A DNA stretch of 64,000 nt from contig OZ024743.1 of assembly GCA_964016885.1 (NCBI GenBank), positions 58,466,001 to 58,530,000 on the forward strand. Direction: 5' to 3'. The translations under genes and the position numbers were made by a program. A model generated the notes under the pieces. The model did not search any database and was not told where the DNA came from. It was given only the letters and a program-made list of their open reading frames with translations. The stretch comes from Eledone cirrhosa. Its lineage: Eukaryota. Shown in pieces: positions 3,238 to 59,530 of this stretch. Each line of letters begins with the position of its first letter. Position 1 is the first letter of the stretch.

Positions 3238-3450
3238 GAGCGTAGTTTTATTGATCAGTGTGTTCAGCTCACGATCGTGACTTTGATTCCGCTCGAAGAG
3301 TGACGTCATTGAGCAAAACACTTGATTTCACCTTGTTCTATTCCACTCAGTCAGCTGGTAGCACCTGCAAGTGTCCTAATGGTGAACTGTCATACGGAGT
3401 GGAGTATCTGGCGCATTGTAAACCTGGCTGAGTCCATTATACTACAGTTC
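3238..3450 (+). mobile_element. Degenerate tRNA-derived SINE (family 2)
   Basis: tRNA-like head then ttgagcaaaacacttgatttcac...ccactcag, shared with 17100-17410. Confidence 0.45.
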
Positions 3451-3608
3451 GAAACATAGTCGATTTCTTCCACAGAGAGAAGGGGGAGAAAGAGATAAGG
3501 GGTAAGAGAAAGGGTTGAGAAAGATATAAGGGTTAGAGAGAGGGAGGGGGAAAGAGGGGGGAAGAGAAAGAGGTGGAGAGAAAGAGAGAAGGGGTAAGAT
3601 AGAGAGAT

Positions 3609-3639
<31 letters not shown>

Positions 3640-3877
3640 TGTTTCTTTATTAGCCACAGGGGCACAAAAGAAGGGGACAAATACAAAGGGGGAGGTTTAC
3701 ATACAATAAAAACGTGTAAAATATTATCACAAATGCAATTTAAAAATTAGTCGATTTTGCCCAATAGGGGGAGACATTACATATGGGTAACACATACACC
3801 CGAAAAAATGTGCAACCCTCATCTCCAGGAGTACGAAGAGTTTGTACCCCTTTCCTCTCCTCCTCTTTTTCCTCAAC

Positions 3878-6800
3878 CTACAGGCTGATATAGAGAGAAG
3901 GCCCATTCACTCGGGTTTCTCGCCACTTTCACCCACCTTTCATAAAACTTGCTGGGGTACAGCACCTCTCTCTCCATCCTGACTCTTCATCAAAACTTGT
4001 ATTTGAAAAAAAGAATCATTTGTTGGCCGGAGAGAAAGGTGTCTGACCTCAGCCCTTTCAACCTTGTCCACCATACAACCTCTTTCGCCATAGCTATCAC
4101 ACAAAGGAAAACCGCCTCTCCTTCGTTTTTGAAGGAGGGTGGCGGTTTGATCATGACAATGGACACGGTGGTCAACCGGAGTGGTCTCACCCGCGACAAT
4201 AGTCGTTCTACATAGCCCCACAGGTCGGTAACGCCCGGGCAGTGTATGAATGCGTGCGCGACGGTTTCTTCGTCTCGCACGCACCTCGGACAGATCTTTT
4301 TCGAAGGGTCCCTGTCCGGGCGCCCATGTCTGTAGAGCTTGTCTCGAACTGGTAGAGCTCCTCGGTAGCACTGCCAGGCCAGGGACTTTTGGAAGTTGTC
4401 CATCGGTCCCGGCGGAAGGTCCTACCGAACAGACTGGCCAGTTCGTCTTCCTCTACGCCTAGAGTTTCACCAAGCGAGTCGTCGCACTTGCTGAGGATCA
4501 ACCCTCTATAGAATGATGAAGTGGAGTCAACACTAATCGCCGGGTCCGCCAGCCAGAGGGCTGTGAGCGCCTGAGCACATTCGATGTGCCAGTCGCCCAT
4601 TTTCCTCGGTCTTTGCTTGACCCAGGACTGCAGCTCCGTCAGCGAGACGAGTCGTGGTAAGGCTCGCCTTACGAACGGGGCTCACACCGGTTGTCCGGTG
4701 AGGAATACGTAGAGATGCCGCAGCCTGAGCGCGTGTTTGCGCATCGTCAGCCACGGCATTCCCAGCCCTCCGTTGGAAGGGTGTTGGCAGTAGATGGATC
4801 TTCTCACCAAAGGAGCCCGCCTCTTCCAAAGGAATTGGAAGAGCGCGCGCTCCATTTTGGTGAGCGTTTTGGCTGGACAAGGCACGATGGTCAAGCGGTA
4901 GTAGATGGCGGACGCTATAAAAGTGTTCGCCACCTCCGCTCGACCTTTCATGGATAGTTTGCACTCGGCCCACTTCTGGGTGAGTGCCATCACCTCGTTC
5001 CAGTTCTTATCCACATGGATATCTTGACCAAAGCAGACCCTGAGCAGCTTTACCGATCCTTCCGTCCAGCGTCCGACGACGCCATCGGAAGGCATCGCTT
5101 TGCCTCTCCACGATCCGATTTGCAAACCGATGGACTTGTCCCGGTTCAGCTTCGCTCCTGTGAAACTTTCCCATTCCCGGTTCCAGAGAGATGCCCTGCA
5201 ATAGCTCCAACTTCCACAGTAGTGGCTCGAGAGTCAGTACGTACAGAAGGGAGGAGAGAGGGCATCACTGTCGAATGGATCGCATGATATAGAATGGCTC
5301 CGAGAGGTAGCCGTTCACCTTGACCTTTGTGCAGATATTGCTGTTGTGCATTGCAGCAATCCAGCCCCTGAACACGGGTCCGAAGCCTAACGCCTCGAGC
5401 ACCGCATCCAGGTAACGATGGTCAACCCTATCGAAAGCCTTAGACTGATCCAAGTTGATCAGGGCCCCACCGAAGCCGGGTTTATACCCTACCCTCTCTA
5501 GGATATATCGCATGAGGTGGAGGTTGTCGTATATGGACCTGGTCGGGATTGCGCATGTCTGCCACCAGGTTCTCGACGACAAGCGTCAGCCTCTTTGCCA
5601 ACACCTTGGCCAAAATCTGTAACTCTGTGTTTAGCAGAGTGATGGGCCGGAAGTTGCCTATGTCATCCCCCTTATTCTCGTCCTTCGTGACTTGTGTGAC
5701 TACGCCCCCGGTCACAGAACTGGGAATTCTCCCGTTCTGCTGCCACTTGCAGTAGACCGCTTCCAGGAGACCAGACAATAAATCCGGCATTGCTACTAAA
5801 ATTCGTAGGGTAGACCGTCGAGACCTGGAGATTTGCGTTTGCCGCATTGGCTCAGTGCGTCCCCTATCTCAGCGGCTGAAATCGGCTTTTCGCAGAACTT
5901 CTCGCTGTCCGAGAGTTGCGGTAGGCCGTCGAGTTATGGACCGAAATCCATAGCCCCTCCTGGCACGCCGCCCTTCCCGAATAGTTGAGCAAAGTGCCAC
6001 TGAAAGGCCGTACACATCTGCTTCGGCTCACGTATCACGCGTCCGTCTTGGTCCTTCGTAGACCGAATCGTGGACATGTTGCCACTTTTTTCCTCCGTCA
6101 CTAGGGCCCAGCTAACGGACTTTGGCCCCCTCGTTACCCAGAGGACGTATTTTGCTCCTGACAACGCAGCCCTCGTGCTTTGCGTCGAAGAACTGGTCCA
6201 ATGCCGTTCTCGTTGCTAGCACGCTGGCTAAGTTGCCACTTCTAATTGCCTCTTCTACATTATCAACCAGTTCCTTCTCTGTCCTATTTCTATCTAACGC
6301 TAATTCTTTACTAAAAACTAACGAGTCTAATCTAACTGCCCTCTTGAGAGAGTACTACCATCTGTTTTTGGCAATGGCCCCTGACAAGTGCTGTTTAACT
6401 AAAGTGCTCATCCGTCTACTGAAGGCTTTGCATGTCGGTTACGACAATTTCCGCTTCCAGTAGCCGGGTCCTTATCTATGTGTTCTATCAAGGTTGACCA
6501 TGCTGCTCACTAGTTTGTGATCTGAATAGGCAACCATGAACATTTGTGGACAGCTTAACATGTCCCTATCCTTATTTCTAACTAGAACCCTATCTAGGTA
6601 CGATCTAGATGTTCCGTTGTAATTAGTCCACAGTGGCACAGTCGGAAAATCTAGTCGATATCTATCGGCCAGGTCAAATCTGCCGATAAACTGTTTGAGG
6701 CTGTTACACCCCCCTTTATCGGGACATGCTTCCACATAGTCCCAACGTGCATCTCTGATTCTATTCCAGTCCCCACTAAAAGCAAGGAGCGGGACGTTCC

Positions 6801-7187
6801 CAGAAAAGTCTCTAGACGTTTGATGACGTCTGGCCGCGGTGTCCCGGATGGGGCATATGCGGCCACCAGCCTGAAGGCTCCAGCTTCGATACCGTCAACG
6901 TCTAGGACCACCAGTCGACCCTCCAGGTCCAGATGTACCGTCTGTATTACGTGGCCCAGGTGTTTCCGCCGTAAAACGGCAATCCCCACTCCCCCCGGCT
7001 GACAGAATGATGCGTAGATCTCAAAGTCATCGAAGATGGGGGCCAGCTGTCGCTCGCTGTGGATCCTGGACTCGCAAATGGCTACTACATCCATACTGTG
7101 CGACCTGAGGTCGTTTAAGAGTTGGCCCTGTTTCCAGGGCATCCCCAGGCCGCGTACATTCACACATCCAACTCTTATATTGGCCAT
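3878..7187 (-). pseudogene. Tx1 ORF2 (APE endonuclease-reverse transcriptase), multiple frameshifts
   Basis: VNVRGL, SRSYLDR, YSDHKLV, NFRPITLLN, LDQSKAFDRVDH, GGLGMP, CPRC..ETVAHAFIHC distributed across frames. Confidence 0.92.
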
Positions 7188-7227
7188 GTTGGTTCTGAAA
7201 AGTTAAAAGAAGAGTAGAAGAAAACAC

Positions 7228-9038
7228 TCACCTCTTCGTCTCCAGGGGATCAGGCCGCATGATTTCCATGGGAGTGTTAGAGGGGTTGTCTGGGTGGGTG
7301 GTGTTTTCCAGCGGGGTGGAGAGGAGATGTTTGGTGGGTTGGGGGTGTCTGGTGGGGTGGGGGTGTCTGGGGTGAGGGTGGGGAAACTTTTTAAAAGGAC
7401 GCGGTTAATGGGTTTAACACAAGGATCACCCATGTCCTTAGGAAAGTTTTCCTTTAAAGACTTATAGGTGTCCGTAGGGACCCTAATCATCTTTAAATTA
7501 GGTTTGTCTACACAGTTCGAAAAAGTTTCCCCTTCGATTTTCACCGAAGGGTCGTTGGAGATGACCTCCATTAAAGTTTTGTTTTTACTCTTTATGTATG
7601 TGTAATGTTCTTGTTGTGTTGCGGTGGTTTTTGTCTGTTGTTCTTGTGGGAGCTTTCGTTTTGTTGTAGGTGTTTGGAGTGATGTCGTGGTTTTGTTTTC
7701 GGGACGGGGGTTTTTTGTTTGTAATGTTTGTGTTGTTTGTGTTGGTGGTTATATGTTTGTAGTGATGTTTGTTATTTTTTTGTTCTTGTGGTTTCTTTTC
7801 TTCTTTCTTTTCGAACGGAGAGGCTCTCCCTCATCGTCACTTGGTGATGATGAGGGGGCCTCGTCCGTTGTGGTGTCTGTGTTATTAGGAAGGGGTATGT
7901 TTTGGGGAGCTGTTGTGTTTGTGGGTGTTTTTGCAGTGGTTTTAGGTGGAGTGGGTTGGGTGGGACTGTGCGTGCAGGTTGGTTTGTTGTTCTTGTTTTG
8001 GTTATGTTTGCGTGTTGTTGTTGTTGTTGTTGCGTGTTGTTGTGGTGGTGGTTGTTGTGTTGTTGTTTTGGGTGTTGGCAGTAGTGCCTCTTTTTTTTTG
8101 TAGTTAACTGAGGACAGTAAGCCTTCAGGTGACCTCTGCTTAAACAGTGGTAACATGAAGGCCGCCTACTCTCAACAGAAATGTTTATGTATGAAATTCC
8201 ATCTAGAGGCACACGTTGAGGTATTTTAGCTATCCGTTCTTGCCTCATTTGGACCAGAACTTCCATGCTTGTACCATTGAATGTGCCTCTGAAGGATTTT
8301 CCCACCGAAATGATGGTGTCTTCGTCGAAATCGATGAAGACAGTTAAAACCCACTAGACGTTTACATTTGGTGCAATGTTCGAAATGTTTATCTTTTGTG
8401 TCCTTTTCCCCATACATGTGGGGAAAAAGGTGTAAAGGGAGGACACAATCGGTGATACAGAATATTTTTGTGCCGTCACTTGGTCTTTCAACAACACTAA
8501 AATGCTTCCAAAAAGTTTCCCTAATTCTTTAGAACCAGTTCAATGTCGTTTTGGGTAAATTGAACTGGTTTTTTCGACACATTTGAAACCATACTAAAAA
8601 TTACTTTTAAGGAGAAGTAATGCTGAAAGCACCACTCTCACCAAAAGTTACATACTGTTTTGCATCGCTTAACATTTCCCTAGCATTGGAAATGTTAAGG
8701 TATGTGAACAGTTCCGTCTTTTGGACTGTTTGAGCAAAGGAAATATTTTCCTTGTTCGTGGAGTTGTTCGTGTTGTTCTTGTTGGTGGTGTTGTTGTTAT
8801 CCTTGTTGCTGTTGTTGTTCTTGTTGTCATTATTGTTATTGTTCTGGTCGGTATTGTTTATATTTTGCATGTTATTGGTGTTTGTGTTAGTGTTGATGTT
8901 ACAATCAACGTCCGACATCGTGTTTGCAAAACTGACGAGATTTTCGATGTCTTTCAATGAGGCGGTGAGAGGAGGTGACTGCGAGCTTAACACTCTTACC
9001 GCCTCTCCACCACTTGTAGTACTGAACTCAGCGTCCAT
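7228..9038 (-). pseudogene. Tx1 ORF1 (Gag-like, zinc knuckle), frameshifted
   Basis: CYHCLSRGHLKAYC; homologous to 13025-14896; C-terminus MEIMRPDPLETKR* matches MEIEQLDLQETKR* of copy 2. Confidence 0.8.
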
Positions 9039-9257
9039 GACTGAATGCAAGATTTGTTTACAATTTTTTCACCGACGAAATTTTTTCAAACGAATATTTC
9101 ACCCCAGGGAGGGGTGAAGATGACTTGACTCACCGTCTGAAAGTCCAGACGTGGGGTCAAGCTATAAAATAGTATCAAATTTAACAATAAATCTTTGATT
9201 TCTTACTTAGAAAATCAACAAAAATTAACCAGAGAACTGGCACAGGTCTCAAGTAAA

Positions 9258-9314
<57 letters not shown>

Positions 9315-9573
9315 TAGATAGATCGATAGATAGATACATTTTTTTTATTTGCCACAAGGGCACATAAGAAAAGGGGACAATACAAAGACATGCCGGGGAT
9401 TTTACATACAGTCGGGTAAAAAATATAAAAACAAAGAATTACAACAATCGAAAGCGCCAATAGGGGGGAAGCGCCACAAATGGGTTGTTTAATACCCCGT
9501 CGATAGAACAACCCTCAACTGCAGGAGCGCGTTGTGCAAGTGCTCCTTTCTTTCTTTTGCTCTCTTCTTCAAC

Positions 9574-12500
9574 CTACAGGCTTATAAACAGAGAAGGCGC
9601 AATCACTCGGGCCATTTTCGCTTCATTCACCTAACTTTCAGTAAATTTACTGGGGTGCAGAGCCTCTCTCTCCACTCTGATTCTCCTTCTAAAGTGATAC
9701 TTAAAGAAGGGAATCAATTGTTGTCCGGAGAGAAAGGCATCTGTCCTCAGTCCTCTCAATCTCGTCCACCATAAAACTTCTTTCACCATGGCCACCGTAC
9801 AAAGGAAAACTGCCTCTCTTTCGTTTTTGAAAGAGGCTGGAGGTTTGATCCTTACTATGGAATCGGCAGTCAACTGGATTTGTCCCATATGCGACAGAAG
9901 TTGTTCTGCATAGTTTCACAGGTCGGTTACGCCCGGGCAGTGTACAATTGCGTGCAGGACTGTTTCAATGTCCTGCGCGCATCTTGGACACGTCCTTTTT
10001 GAAGGATCCCTGCCGGAGCGTCCGTGCCTGTAGATCTTGTCACGAACCGGTAGAGTTCGGTAGCACTGCCAGGCCAGGGACCTCTGGAAGTTGTCCCTAG
10101 GTCCCGGGTGGAAAGTCCTATCAAACAGACTGATGAGCTCATCGTCTTCGACGCCCAGAGTCTCTCCGAGCACGTCATCGCCCTTGTAACGTACAATCCC
10201 TCTATAGAATGTCGAAGTGGAGTCTCCACTGATTGCTGCGCCGGCTTGCCAGAGTACTGTAAGCGCCTGAGCGCATTCACTGTGCCAGGCGCCCATCGAT
10301 TTCGGTCTTTCTTGACCCAGGACTGCAGCTCCGTCAGCGAGACGAGCTGTGGCAAAACCTGTCTCACAAACGGTGCCCACACCGGTTGGGGGTCGGTGAG
10401 GAATACCTGGAGATGCCGCAGCCTCAGCGCATGTTTGCGCATCATCAGCCACGGCATTCCCAGCCCTCCGTTGGAAGGGTGCTGACAGCAGACGGATCTT
10501 CTCACTAGCGGAGCCTGCTTCTTCCACAGAAACTGAAAGAGCATGCGTTCCATCTTGGCGAGGTGTTCACGGGGACAAGGCACGACAGTCAAGCCGTAGT
10601 AGATGACGGACGCTATGAAAGTGTTCGCCACATCCGCTCGACCTTTCAAGGACAGTTTGCACTCTGCCCACTTCTGGGTGAGTGCAAACACCTTGGCCGT
10701 GACCTCGTTCCAGTTTTTTCTACACCTGGAGGTCTAGACCGAACCAGACCCCGAGCAATTTCACCGGTCCGTCCGTCCAGCGTCCAACGACGCTGTCGGA
10801 CGTCATCGGTTTGCCTCTCCACGTAGCGAGTTGCAAACCGACAGACTTGTACGGGTGTAGTTTTGCTCCCGTCAGCGCGTTTCGTATTCTTTCAGTAAGT
10901 TGCCGATCACCCCGTCGGCATAAGCCGACGCCGCTTTGCGCATTCCTGGTTCTAGAGGGATGCCCTAAAACATCTCCAATTTCCGCAGTAGTGGCTCTAG
11001 AGTCAATACATACAGAATTGAGGAGAGAGGGCATCCCTGTCGAATGGAACGTGTGATTGCGAACGGTTCCGATAGGTAGCCGTTCACCTTGACCCTCGAG
11101 AAAATGCTGGTGTGCATCGCCTCGATCCAGCCTCTGAACACGAGACCGAAACCGGCCGACTTGAGAACCGCTTTCAAGTATCGATGGTCGACCCTATCGA
11201 ATGCCTTAGACTGATCCAAATTGATCAGGGCCCCACCGAAGCTGGGTTTACTACCCACCCTCTCTATGATGTATCGCATGAGGTGGAGGTTGTCGTGTAT
11301 GGACCTGGTCGGGATTGCGCACGTTTGCGCTTTCCCTAACAGGTTCTCGACGACAAGCGCCAACCTCGTCGCTAACACCTTGGCTAAAATCTGTAACTCT
11401 GTGTTGAGCAGAGTTATGAGCCTGAAGTTGTTAATTTCGTCCCCCTTGTTCTCGTCTTTCCTGATCAGCGTTACTACGCCCTTGCCTGCAGAATTGGGAA
11501 TTCTCCCGTTCTGCTGCCAATTGCAGTAGACGGCTTCGAGGACGCCAGAGAACAAGTTCGGCATGTCTATGTAAAACTCATAGGGTAGACCATCTAGACC
11601 GGGTGACTTGCGTTTCCCGCAGCGGCCCAGAGCGTCCCGTATCTCAGTGTCCGTGATTGGTCTATCGCAGAATTCGGCGTCCGTGTTCGAGAGACGCGGT
11701 AGGCCGTCGAGGTATGAACTAAAGTCCATTGCCCCGTTCGACTCACCGTCGTTCTGCTCAAACAGTCGCGCAAAGTGCTGCTGAAAGGCCGCGCACATTT
11801 GCTTGGGGTCAAGTAGCACGCGTCCGTTTTGATCTTTCAAAGACCGAATCGTGGACTTGTTGCTACTTTTTGCCTCCGCCACTCGCGCCCAGCTGACAGC
11901 TTTCGCTCCTTCATTTCCTAGAGCAAGTGTTTTTCTTCTGACCACGCAGCCTTCGTGTTTCGCATCGAAGAACTGGTCCAGTGCCGTTCTCGACGCTAAC
12001 ATTCTAGCCGCATTGCCACTTCTAAGTGTCTCTTCTACCTTGGCTTTTAGTTCTCTTTCTAGTTTGTTTTTCTCTAAGGCTAACTCTCTGCTAAAACCTA
12101 TCGATTCTATTCTAATTGCTTTCTTGAGAGAGTACCACCATCTATTGTTGACGATGGTTCCTGTTAACTGTTGCTTGACTAGTTTACTTATCCGTTCACT
12201 ATAAGCTTTACGTGCCGGCAACGACACGTTAAGCTTCCAGTATCCGGGTCCTTGTTTATGTGTTCTAACACGGTTGATTAAGTAGACGACTAATTTGTGA
12301 TCTGAATAGGCAACCATGTACATTCGTCGACAGCTTAACATCTCCTTGTCCCTTTCTCTCATGAAGAACCTATCTAAATACGATCTAGATGTTCCGCTGC
12401 GGTTTGCCCACGTCCACTGTGGTGCAGTCGGGAAATCCAGTAGATACCTATCGGCCAGTTGGAATTGGCCGATTAAAGTTTTGAGGCTGTTGCACCCCGC

Positions 12501-12983
12501 TCTACTGGGACATGCTCCCACATAGTCCCATCGTGCATCTAGGATACCATTCCAGTCCCACACTAAAAGTAAGGAGCGAGACGTTCCCAGAAAGGACTCT
12601 AGACGCTTAAAGAAGTCAGGCCGTGATTGCGATTGCCCGGTCGGGGCATAAACGGCTACCAGTCTGAAGGCTCCACCTCCAATACTGTTCACGTCTAGGA
12701 CTACCAGTCTACCCTCCGGGTCCAAGTGTACTTGCTGTACTTCGACGTCCAGGTTCTTCCGAAACATGACAACCACTCCACCCCCACCTCCTGGCTGACA
12801 GAGAGATGCGTAGATCTCAAAGTCGTCGAAGATGGGGGTTAGTTGCTGCCTGTTGTGGATCCTGAACTCGGTGATGGCTATCACATCCGTACCATGTGAC
12901 CTAAGGTCGTTTAAAAGTTGGCACTGTTTCCAGGGCATCCCTAGGCCACGCACATTCACGCTTCCAACTCGTAAACTAGCCAT
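9574..12983 (-). pseudogene. Tx1 ORF2 (APE-RT); first 672 codons open, then frameshifts and a disrupted YADD region
   Basis: KSPGLDGLPYEFY, LDQSKAFDRVDH, SIRQGCPLS, CPRC..ETVLHAIVHC. Confidence 0.93.
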
Positions 12984-13024
12984 GTTGGTGAAGAAGAGTT
13001 GGTGAAAAAGGGCGAAAGGTGCAC

Positions 13025-14896
13025 TTACCTTTTCGTTTCCTGGAGATCGAGTTGTTCAATCTCCATTTGGGTGCTGGATGGGGTGTTGGGTGGGGTGGGG
13101 AAATATTTTAACAGGACGCGGTTGATGGGTTTCTTGCAGGGGTTGCCCACGTCCTGTGAACATTTATTGTTTAGGTCATTATAGGTTTCCATAGAAACCC
13201 TTATAAGTTTAAGGTGTGGAGACGATTCTGCCTTGACGAAAGTTTTGCCCTCCGTCTCCACCTTGGGGTATTGGGAGATGACCTCCATCAAATCCTTGCT
13301 ATTTGTGTTGATATATGCGTATTGTTGTTTGTGTTTTTGTTGTGTTGTTTTAGTTTGTTGTTCGTCCGGAAGTTTTCTTTTTATGGTGGGTGCTTGTGTT
13401 TGGGGTGGTATTGGTGTTGGTTTTGCTGATAGGAGGATGTTTGACTGTGGTGTTGTTTGTGTTGTTGTTTGTGTCTGTGGTTGTGTATTGGTCTTGGTTA
13501 TTGGAGTTTTGGGGGTTTTGTGGTGTCCCTTTTTTTGTTTTTTAGATTTCCGCGGCTCTCCCTCTTCTTCACTTAAAGAAGGAGAAGCAGCTTCATCCGT
13601 CGATGAATAATCATCGTCAGGTGTGTGGGGTAGGGGTATGTTGTGTGGTGGTAGTGTTTGATGGAGTGGGATGGGGTGGGGCTGTGTCCTTCAGGGGTGT
13701 TGTCTCTGTTTTTTCTGTTGTTGTTGGTTGAGTGTCTGTTTGTTTTGGTGTGGTTGTTCGTTTCGTCTGTCGTTGTACTTGTGGTGGTGGTGGTTGTTTT
13801 GGTGTTGGTGTTGGTAATAGTGTTTTTTTAATGATGTTGTTGTTGTGTATTTGTGAAGGGCAAGAGGCTTTTAGGTGTGCTGTGCTACAACATCGAAAGC
13901 AATGAAATTTTCGTCCTTCTACCGAAATGTTTATTTTGTTTTTGTCATCGATGACGACTTTTTCGGGTATTTTGGAGATTCTCTCCGACCTCATTTGCAA
14001 CAGAATCTCCAAATCAGTACCCGCCCACCTTTGTCGAATAGACTTTCGTATCGAAAGAATCATATCAGTTTCTGGCTCTACGAAGCCAGCCAAGATGTTA
14101 ATGTTTGGGGGTATATTTTTTATTTTTATTTTTTGTGTCCTTTTTCCCATGTATATAGGGAAAAAGATGAATGCTTTTGACACTATTGGTGTCACAGAAT
14201 GTTTTTGGGCGAGTGCCTCGCTTTTAAACAGTACGGAAACACTTCCGTATTGTTTTCCTCGTTGGAGAAAATCGATATTTGCTAGAATTTCCTTGAAAGT
14301 AACATCTATATCTGCTTGACTAACAAATATCGGCTTCCTCGTGGAATTGGACACAGTCTTCCTTTATTTCAAGGGGTGTCTTCCTTTATTTCAAGGGGTG
14401 AGTTAATTCTAAACCCACCATTCTCTTCGAAAGTTACACATGTTCTCCCTTGCTGGAGCATATCTCTTGCATTGGAGATGTCCAGATTTATAAAATCTTG
14501 TTTTTTGTTCACTGTGTCAGCGAAAGACATTTTCTTTTTTTGTGTGGTGTTGCTGTTGTTGTTGTTATCGTTGTTAGCCTCGGTGTTGGAAATCTCAGTT
14601 CATTGACGAGGTGAAACTTTATGTGTAGATGTATCTGTGGAGTTGTTAATGTCTTTTTCATGTGTATGTATGTTAATAGGTTTAATGTCTGTGTTTTCAT
14701 GTGAGTTAGTGTTATTTTTCTCCGCTTCAACGGTAGAAATTGTACAATTTTCGAGTGGTAACATTTTTTCCTCTTTGTTGACAGTCGTATCTATGGCGAC
14801 GTCCATAGTAGCAGAAGCAGATATAATGTTAAAATCTGCCTCTTTCTCTCTCTTTTCTCTATTGACGTTCTCCAGCGTTCTCTTCGTGTTATTCAT
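13025..14896 (-). pseudogene. Tx1 ORF1, interrupted
   Basis: CFRCCSTAHLKASC knuckle; 22-bp tandem duplication at 14357-14400; Thr/Pro-rich linker. Confidence 0.8.
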
Positions 14897-15013
14897 GTTT
14901 TATAGTTTGCAAAATTTGATATTTTAAAATGGGATTACCACCCAGCTGACAATTCAGCTTGGGGGTTAATCTACAAAATAATATGTTTTTACAAACAATT
15001 TGTTCTGTTTTTC

Positions 15014-15176
<163 letters not shown>

Positions 15177-17099
15177 GACTCCAATATCTTACTCGATCGC
15201 TATATATCGACCTCTGAAAGATGAAAACTAAAATTGATCTCGACGGGATTTGAAATCGGTGCGCAATGTGCCGGAACAAATAGCCAAATATATTTATTCC
15301 AACGCCCCTTAACCAATCTGAAATTTCCTCGCCTTCGCATTTTAAACATCAGAAAAATATATCATATTTATGACTTTGAGAGTAATATCCTCTTATATCA
15401 TGTTGCAACAAGAATATTTTTAAAAATAGATATTTCTTCCTGCCAACTTGCTGATTAGATTACGTTATATCTTAGTACAACCGATGATTTTATGTAACAG
15501 CAGCACTTATATAATTATAATAATTAGTTATTAACTAATGATAATTACACCTTTAATGTCTCAGCTTCATTTTAGGCATCACAAAGAGAGACATTCTGAA
15601 AATATATTAATTTATAGTGTGTGGCAAAATAGTCATTAATAACCACGTAGTTTGACAAGGAATACCAGAAAATGAGGAATAAAGGAGGTGAATTTAAAAG
15701 AGCTCTGTTCAAACAACCCCTTAATATGCTCTCTTGATATTTATTTTATGAACAGAAGTAGATGAAAACATACTGAAACAGTTTCCTCTGTCTCTCCATC
15801 ATTATCTCAAACCCTAATCTTCTCATCCGTGTAAAATAAAAATGTATTGATACAATTGTCAGTGATGTACCAGATTTCTTGTTCTTAGAATGAAGGTTTA
15901 TATTAAATATTAATATGTACTGAATATATTTCCATCTACGTAACTTTGATACGGAGTAAAGAATTGTTAATAAGAAAGAATATATGCCTCAAAACCAATG
16001 ACAATATACATTTATACTGAAATATCAGAGAAGCTTCATTTATCTTAGGCATCAATAACAAGTTGCACAATACATAACGCCCACATAGAAAACCAGCACC
16101 TGCCACAAGCAAACTCTTGTTAGCACATTGTTGTGAGATGTTATAGATGTATGATATATTTCTTTATGATTTTCCCAATTAGTGCTAACCCTACACGTTA
16201 AAATACAGGTGATAGAGTATTTAATTCTGTGAATATATTAAAGACCCACGCATGTTTTATATCTGATTTGCCTATCCTGCAATAGTATTCAATATTAAAA
16301 TCTTCAGCAAAATCCTAAATTGAAACTGTAATAACATAGTTTTTAATGAAGAATTGAACGTCGTAGGTTCAAACGTTCACTCTGCTTGGTATCTTGGGCA
16401 GGTGTCACATACAATAGCTTTCAGTTGACATAATCCATGTGAGCGAAATTGTGTATGTCGAAAATGTTCGGTAGCCCGTCAGATAGACTGCACCTATAAA
16501 TCAATTGGTCGGCCCTGTAACACACAGTGTTGTTATGCTAAATGTTTCTCAGTATTACGGTAGAATGGCCCGGACACTTCTAAATTGATTTCATGGGTAG
16601 GGCATCCCGTTCATGGAACAAGCAGAACATTCAATATCAAAACCGGAAGAGGTCCATTTCATTTCATTCTGTGATACATTGATTCTTATGATAGTTTTAA
16701 ATCATAATGTTGAACAATTTTATATTATGTTGGAAAATGTAAAATTGTTGAACAATGTTAAATAATATTGAACAATATTTTTCAAATTTGGTAACAAAAA
16801 AATCATTATTTTTATTCATGTTAGTATCTAGTGACATAATCATAATTAATTGTTGCTATTATTTGGCTCTGTGCATACGCATTTAGCTTTAGCTATGACG
16901 TATATAGATATGGGCATATGGGTTTATGGCTGTGAATGTACGAATTTGAGGTAGGGTGTACGGCTCATTGTCTCAAATTTTCAGTGATGCATTTGGAGTA
17001 TTAATGTTTGTTTTTGTGTAAATCGAGTACGGAAAACAGATAATGAAGATCGTTACCTGAGAGCTTATTGGCAGATATATATCTCAAAAACAAGGTATG

Positions 17100-59256: not shown

Positions 59257-59530
59257 ATAAATAAGTAAATTAAATTAAATAAAATAAGATAAATAAATAC
59301 ATACACAAGCACATAAACACACACTAGTCACCCAGCAGACACAACACTATACACACTAGTCACACATCACACATAACACTATACACACACGCAAACGCAT
59401 GCGCAAAGAAGACAAAATAAAATAAGATAAACAAACAAGCAAATAAATAAATAAATATATAGACAGACTGAACACAAAAAAAAAAAATGGCGTAGACATA
59501 CAACACAACAGGAGGAACAATGAATATAAC

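Follow-up and report, generated by a model that had tools for sequence, protein, structure and literature searches.

Among coleoid cephalopods, 13 recently active L1-Tx1 families of long interspersed nuclear elements (LINEs) are listed for Octopus vulgaris in PMC13282606. How the second open reading frame (ORF2) is translated from the RNA of a two-gene LINE is presented as an unsettled question in PMC3894237, where translation of ORF1 and ORF2 of SART1 is described as coupled at UAAUG with a downstream RNA structure. Spliced human L1 RNAs leave retrotransposed copies, the SpIREs (PMC5860796), and long-distance RNA interactions are described for tombusviruses (PMC3234231). The window analysed here is a stretch of 64,000 nt of Eledone cirrhosa DNA (OZ024743.1, 58,466,001–58,530,000; coordinates below are window positions), and it contains a Tx1-type LINE, copy 2, in which letters resembling a 5′ splice site lie over the ORF1 stop codon. 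Like the coleoid L1-Tx1 LINEs, the element has two ORFs, an ORF2 with APE endonuclease and reverse transcriptase, and thousands of young copies; the label 'Tx1' follows the naming of a first-pass annotation, not tree placement with reference elements. In phage MS2 a long-distance interaction couples the translation of coat and replicase, and in copia/Ty1-type long terminal repeat elements a gag-only subgenomic RNA is made by splicing. Judged from the sequence, copy 2 probably has the ordinary two-gene junction of a Tx1-type LINE, with ORF1 ending at TAA and ORF2 beginning at its own ATG 41 bases further on; the 53-base segment that the first-pass annotation had read as an intron is likely not a working in-frame intron, and a predicted helix joins the junction to the 3′ untranslated region (UTR).

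The 3′ part of ORF1 of copy 2 was located by ORF reading and tblastn at 13025–13690 (minus strand, as are all features of the element given below); it comprises 221 open codons, ending in QETKR, and the stop codon TAA at 13027–13025. The minus-strand reading at the junction is CAG GAA ACG AAA AGG TAA GTG CAC C. The Arg codon AGG, the stop codon TAA and the next GT make up the donor-like AG|GTAAGT (13023–13030), which was retained in all 30 of 30 close copies; with one more base, AAG|GTAAGT at 13031–13023 matches the 5′ splice-site consensus MAG|GTRAGT. The motif AGGTRAGT is not rare in the window (13 matches, versus 3.9 ± 2.2 in shuffles). A pyrimidine-rich inter-ORF spacer of 41 nt follows (12984–13024) and is predicted to pair with a GA-rich 3′ arm. 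The 45 bases 13022–12978 contain 33 pyrimidines and no AG. The first AG downstream of the donor letters is at 12977–12976, so that the segment 13028–12976 has 53 nt, and joining AAA AG to T TTA CGA gives ETKS-LRVG in the ORF2 frame. The donor letters over the stop, the AG-free pyrimidine-rich spacer and the in-frame first AG at 53 nt, on which the annotation had built its intron, were all confirmed as letters.

The ORF2 ATG of copy 2 (12981–12983, context ACCAACATGGC) is located within the proposed intron, and the splice would remove it. The stretch caccaacATGGCTAGT holds this start codon. ATG GCT AGT (12983–12975) is the beginning of ORF2, translated MASLRVGSVNVRGL, the usual start of such an endonuclease; the proposed acceptor AG (12976–12977) is formed by the first two bases of the third codon, AGT, and is replaced by GG, GA or AA in the related lineages A2, A3 and A4, respectively. 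The 12 bases before this AG are caacatggctAG, a purine-rich run, and a pyrimidine tract reaching up to a YAG was not found there. ORF2, with APE endonuclease and reverse transcriptase, occupies 10965–12983, where 672 codons are open from the ATG before the frame is broken; remnants run on in other frames to about 9634. Profile matches were obtained to PF03372 (residues 32–253) and PF00078 (residues 538–694). No stop codon interrupts the ORF2 frame between 13055 and 10965, and its first 10 codons overlap ORF1. A separate upstream ORF1 and an ORF2 with its own start, as are typical of the L1/Tx1 clade, are thus both present.

Copies were sought in the 3.0 Gb genome of the same species, so that all lineages discussed here are drawn from one genome. 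At least 2183 junction candidates were found, the best 40 of which were 95–100% identical. In an alignment of 30 rows (the window and 29 others), every row retained GTAAGT, the entire spacer and the ATG, intact or with one base changed. An 18-mer from the N-terminal part of ORF2 that is common to both window copies occurred 1567 times (reversed control, 0), and the first 70 of its places along contig 1 were taken as a sample blind to the junction. An ATG stood at the homologous place in 61 of these 70 copies, in the context given above for copy 2. Moderate evidence comes from distant full-length homologues (26–42% identity, 1143–1177 residues), whose Met positions are gene-caller starts: in 21 of 21 the Met lies 4–11 residues before an N..G[LF] motif, the distance in the window being 10. 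The nearest named proteins were from Argonauta hians (61–65% identity) and a cuttlefish.

The other element in the window, copy 1, is a second, diverged copy (tblastn) just downstream of copy 2 and belongs to family B, which is about 80% identical to family A of copy 2. Its junction (7185–7233, AGGTGAGT) reads AAG AGG TGA GTG ... TTTTCAG|AACCAACATGG, in full AAG AGG TGA GTG ttttcttctactcttcttttaacttttcag AACCAACATGGCC, with the motif at 7233–7226, the first AG at 7196–7195 (37 nt from GT to AG) and the ORF2 ATG at 7187–7185. The annotation had described the arrangement in copy 2 as preserved independently of copy 1; this is overstated, as the two spacers are homologous and share ACTCTTCTT and ACCAACATGGC.

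Further families (A3, A4 and C–H) were found by pattern searches, and their phase was read by hand from the sequences. Pairwise identity over 4.6 kb, from 3–6 copies of each lineage, was 97.8% in A2, 95.8% in B2, 90.2% in A1, 92.1% in B and 92.2% in B3, which makes A2 and B2 the youngest. In one of four A2 copies ORF2 is open for 1148 codons from its own ATG. In family H copies (L245, L247 and L252) about 75 nt of the ORF1 end is duplicated in tandem, 21 nt separate a B-type ORF1 end from AGGTAAGTG, and the spacer from GT to ATG measures only 29 nt; upstream, their ORF1 has two open frames, and the position of the stop on the motif is ambiguous.

If the 53-nt segment were an intron that fused the two proteins, the first AG should keep its phase. 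Eleven of the 70 sampled copies could not be scored, six having a mutated donor hexamer or a 5′ truncation and five having anchor codons that were not located. Among the other 59, the first AG after the donor hexamer was in frame in 25 and out of frame in 34, and the frame is therefore not conserved. A1, the type of copy 2 (7–10 copies), has GCT AGT and an in-frame gap of 53 nt; in A2 (9–11 copies) ATG GCT GGT replaces GCT AGT, the AG is lost and the next one, in CGAG, gives an out-of-frame gap of 61 nt. In B and B3 (12 copies) the AG precedes the ATG and the gap of 28–37 nt is in frame, and B2 (20 copies in the sample), one base shorter before the motif (AAG GGT GAG TGA), is out of frame with a gap of 33–34 nt. 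The AG is also lost in A3 (GCT GAC) and A4 (GCT AAT); these two and D, in which ORF2 begins MATIQ, are out of frame. C, E and G are in frame through one and the same AG, that of the Arg codon AGA in a conserved I/L-R-V-G motif, as is H if its stop is the TAA of the motif, and F is in frame through AGT, like A1. The place of the AG is not homologous between families: B has it ahead of the ATG, A1 and F within the third codon, and C, E, G and H within the fifth. Both of the youngest lineages, A2 and B2, are out of frame; lineages which lost the in-frame arrangement thus went on multiplying. The first AG behaves as if its phase were free of constraint, and the GT after the stop is retained. Of the conservation across diverged subfamilies that the annotation had seen, the donor-like motif in eight lineages stands, and the in-frame acceptor, non-homologous between families and lost in A2–A4, does not; likewise the phase looks random, as the annotation had said it would if the intron were not real, and the loss of the GT that it had named beside this did not occur.

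A spliced RNA encoding working proteins would be expected to leave gap-less copies in the genome, as with the human L1 SpIREs. The 17-mer ending in AAAAG followed by a base other than G gave 62 matches, of which 50 were inspected, including all 26 that continue with T; the other 12 continue with A and cannot be the proposed spliced form, which needs T. AAAAG|TTTACGAG, the form with the 53 nt removed, was seen in 0 of the 50 inspected and in 0 of the 26 T-continuing matches. What the 50 showed were point mutations, small deletions (some of 1 nt), a single truncation and a single deletion of about 120 nt whose ends are not a clean GT..AG. The unspliced 17-mer followed by GTA was present in 773 copies. 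With a B-type anchor all 42 of 42 matches were inspected and none was spliced, and a form lacking ORF2 was found in 0 of 20 genomic copies that have the 17-mer, then GT and a base other than A, these being point mutants or members of other families. The element resembles the human L1 SpIRE system in having a LINE transcript with splice-site-like signals whose use would leave intronless copies, and differs from it in that such copies number 0/26, 0/20 and 0/42 among the candidates. On the genomic copies and the phase of the first AG, fusion by splicing probably does not hold for the element of copy 2.

A lone example, the copy with the 120-nt deletion (L099, contig 2), has AAAAG joined directly to TCACACGG inside ORF2, its deletion beginning precisely at the donor-like motif. 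Contigs of four runs (X1–X4, kind not on record) gave no joint at 13028/12976 or at 13028/~9579, among 15 of 323 joints listed for X1–X4 over 5100–14400 and for X4 alone over 9300–13500, and this carries no weight either way. Summed contig depth over 5100–14400, a poor measure, peaks over the ORF1 regions in X4 and rises toward the 3′ ends in X1–X3, the latter being the pattern expected of 5′-truncated DNA copies. A search for fused ORF1–ORF2 proteins gave only remote matches (≤29% identity) and was uninformative. A −1 frameshift into ORF2 was also considered and rejected: no slippery heptamer is present at copy 2, and in family B a TAA stop lies in the ORF2 frame 18 nt before the ATG.

The junction is predicted to take part in a long-range RNA helix. 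Its 5′ arm (12975–13090) covers the ORF1 end, the stop, the spacer and the ORF2 start; its 3′ arm (9455–9582) lies in the 3′ UTR about 3450 nt downstream of the donor-like motif, is GA-rich and starts with CCTGTAGGTTGA. For copy 2 the duplex is predicted at −85.9 kcal/mol. Dinucleotide shuffling of the partner, done 200 times, gave −42.8 ± 4.7 kcal/mol (lowest value −56.0; z = −9.1), and of 186 partner windows taken along the element (median −37.1) none scored better than the 3′-UTR site. When all 3711 nt are folded at minimum energy, 13061–12978 is joined to 9502–9582 by 60 pairs, among them those of the ATG and of 13028–13021 (the stop and donor letters). A helix is also predicted for copy 1 (−87.5 kcal/mol), and in copies of A1–A4, B, B2, B3, D, E and G the values ranged from −56 to −114 kcal/mol. 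Copies in which the 3′ part is missing or disrupted fail the prediction, and the 3′ arm was not located in the single family C copy examined (L080).

RNAalifold on 30 copies gave 26 long-range pairs, with 96.4% of cells paired versus 46–58% when the partner was slid by 1–3 columns; one E copy (L157), for which a wrong 3′ arm had been picked, was dropped from this set and from the energy and motif-pairing sets. Outside the low-complexity part, the pair GAACAACCC/GGGTTGTTC of A and D changes to GTGCRGCC/GGGTTGCAC in B. Position +3 of the motif is predicted to pair as A-U in A-type copies and as G-C in E (3/3) and B3 (2/2), and position +4 as A-U in A, E and B3 and as G-C in G (6/7); the second and third bases of the stop codon thus covary with the partner arm. 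A helix would account for this joint change, and pairing with a GA-rich partner would account for the pyrimidine-rich, AG-free spacer. A local pairing is also open to the far end of the 3′ arm (9505–9455), GGGTTGTTC, with AACAACCC some 20 nt further downstream, and in B the corresponding sequences are GGGTTGCACA...TGTGTTACCC, changing in step between families. The long-range helix may therefore compete with a local hairpin.

In the arrangement that we propose, one arm of a helix of about 60 bp would run from the last ~60 bases of ORF1 through the stop and the whole spacer to the ORF2 start, with ORF2 looped out. Such a helix would likely couple ORF2 initiation to ORF1 termination, since a ribosome completing ORF1 would unwind the arm in which the ORF2 AUG is hidden, and reverse transcription entering from the 3′ end might shut translation off through the same helix. 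As a tentative and rather doubtful model, then, this cephalopod LINE group would loop out a 3.4-kb reverse-transcriptase gene by a 60-bp helix that buries the ORF1 stop and the ORF2 start, a switch that would admit only ribosomes finishing ORF1 and would be undone by reverse transcription. If true, RNA phages and plant RNA viruses, with their long-distance control of translation, would for the first time have a counterpart among retrotransposons. The conserved predicted helix in any case gives a concrete, testable candidate element for the control of ORF2 in a LINE group that is young and abundant.

By analogy with SART1, ORF2 would be begun by ribosomes that have just left ORF1, aided by structure at the junction; unlike in SART1, the stop and start neither overlap nor abut (they are 41 nt apart here), and the predicted structure is long-range (3.45 kb) and not local. 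Beside the SART1 junction, the nearest parallels to the proposed coupling are the tombusvirus interactions and the coat–replicase coupling of phage MS2. Like the long-distance recoding elements of plant RNA viruses, a stop-proximal element ahead of a polymerase gene is predicted to pair, by 60 pairs, with the 3′ UTR 3.45 kb away. Copy 2 differs from these viruses in being a retrotransposon and in that readthrough cannot work, ORF2 being in another frame and family B having a spacer stop in the ORF2 frame. In the literature searched, which left most subscription papers outside its scope, no description was found of a donor-like motif on an ORF1 stop or of a long-range helix in LINEs.

The donor-like motif over the ORF1 stop is kept in A, B (including B2 and B3), C, D, E, F, G and H. 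The stop within it is TAA in A, C, D and F (and in H, if the frame holds), TGA in B and E and TAG in G, and 17 of 19 copies of family G have GTAGGT instead of GTRAGT; the conservation of GTRAGT that the annotation had proposed to check holds for the GT after the stop in eight families and fails for the full hexamer in G. In B2 the motif survives the frame shift, with the stop 5 nt further on and the donor in phase 1. The eight fixed bases of the motif are not significant by themselves, because two of the three stop codons yield GTRAGT automatically and A and B are about 80% identical. For the letters, the sum of Arg codon, stop codon and helix or termination context is a better explanation than a 5′ splice site in use. 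A perfect donor match over a stop codon can evidently come from such a combination, and gene predictors would readily call false introns there.

Several observations weigh against the two-gene junction with its predicted helix. The helix is itself a prediction. Double changes were found at 10 of the 26 pairs, a modest excess over the 4–8 in slid controls. In B, B2 and D some of the donor letters are left without a partner; +3 and +4 are unpaired in B2, as is +4 in D. Between-family duplex energies are as good as within-family ones, and energies do not tell cognate from non-cognate arms, as the CT-rich arm of one family pairs with the GA-rich arm of another. The argument from the youngest lineages draws on ages based on 3–6 copies each. 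Counted by lineage, 8 of 13 (A1, B, B3, C, E, F, G and H) have an in-frame first AG, which is more than one third; the eight trace to three AG positions common by descent. Finally, AGG-stop-GTG is invariant in every lineage seen while the next three bases vary, and coding alone does not account for the GTG after the stop.

Two other explanations seem unlikely, to about the same degree. According to one, the junction reflects descent and coding only: the lineages are close, AGG, the stop and three further bases have not diverged, and the helix is a by-product of CT- and GA-rich low-complexity tracts. With A and B about 80% identical, eight fixed bases would survive by chance with a probability of ~0.17, the majority of stop codons supply GTRAGT unaided, and the lack of cognate specificity in the energies between families is what such tracts would give. 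This explanation does not sit well with a 3′-UTR site that no other partner in the element equals and that is retained when 3.7 kb are folded at minimum energy, with segments outside the low-complexity part that pair and covary, or with a helix predicted in seven lineages of differing central sequence.

The other takes the donor to be real and joins it to a distant acceptor, CCTGTAG|G at the head of the 3′ arm (~9575), so that ORF2 would be removed and an ORF1-only message made, the helix holding the sites together. As in copia/Ty1-type elements, the polymerase gene could be spliced out from a donor that lies where the first gene ends; unlike in those elements, no spliced form was present among the genome copies inspected, and the acceptor is conjectural. 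Eight lineages keep the donor-like motif, the 3′ arms of A, B, D, E and G all open with CCTGTAGGT after a short pyrimidine run, and the predicted helix brings both regions together. The 0 of 20 ORF2-less copies, the weaker GTAGGT of family G and the complete pairing of the donor letters within the helix in A, E and B3 argue against it, and CCTGTAGGT is explained as well by pairing with the ORF2 start region.

It is less probable still that the motif binds the U1 small nuclear ribonucleoprotein without splicing, which might suppress premature polyadenylation in ORF2 or affect nuclear retention. A consensus U1 site does stand at the head of a 3.4-kb ORF, and the motif is kept across lineages, both of its halves surviving the frame shift in B2; against this, G uses GTAGGT, and the way in which +3 and +4 covary suggests pairing with the 3′ arm of the element itself and not with U1.

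The shortest introns known from animals have about 40 nt or more, beside which the 53 nt of A1 are borderline. A GT–AG intron of 53 nt (37 nt in copy 1) that removes the ORF1 stop and fuses ORF1 to ORF2 in frame is the least credible explanation and very improbable: for all its perfect donor consensus (AAG|GTAAGT and GAG|GTGAGT), its AG-free pyrimidine-rich tract and a first AG that keeps the frame in 8 of 13 lineages and in each of the window copies, it would splice out the conserved ORF2 ATG or leave it 7 nt past the AG in B, its AG is non-homologous between families and out of frame in 34 of 59 copies, the youngest lineages included, its acceptor in copy 2 follows purine-rich bases, its B-type length of 28–37 nt is probably below the animal minimum, and intronless copies are 0/26 and 0/42 among the candidates beside 773 unspliced ones.

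Full-length elements stand head to tail on the minus strand over 3400–15200, the family A copy followed by the family B copy. Pairs of the ORF2 18-mer on the same strand 5.5–6.0 kb apart recur along contig 1 (A-B, A2-A2 and B2-B2), and the head-to-tail pairs suggest repeated insertion into the same type of target or beside an earlier copy. Target specificity for microsatellites or multicopy genes is a trait of many Tx1 elements. Runs of (TC)n and (TA)n flank each copy (15188–14892 and 9514–9218, minus strand; SLSLSL and YIYIYI in translation), which would fit the microsatellite targeting of some Tx1 elements.

Elsewhere in the window, an inverted repeat extends over 53965–59486, with arms 54409–56045 and 57405–59041 that are 99% complementary and outer arms 53965–54433 and 59018–59486 that are 100% complementary; it encloses ORFs with a weak reverse-transcriptase match. 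Long repeat arrays with a period of 8–10 nt (~355 register matches) were found at 178–600 and from 21690 onward, and 43086–46353 holds a block of nested inverted repeats at 43086–44769 with partners at 45918–46353.

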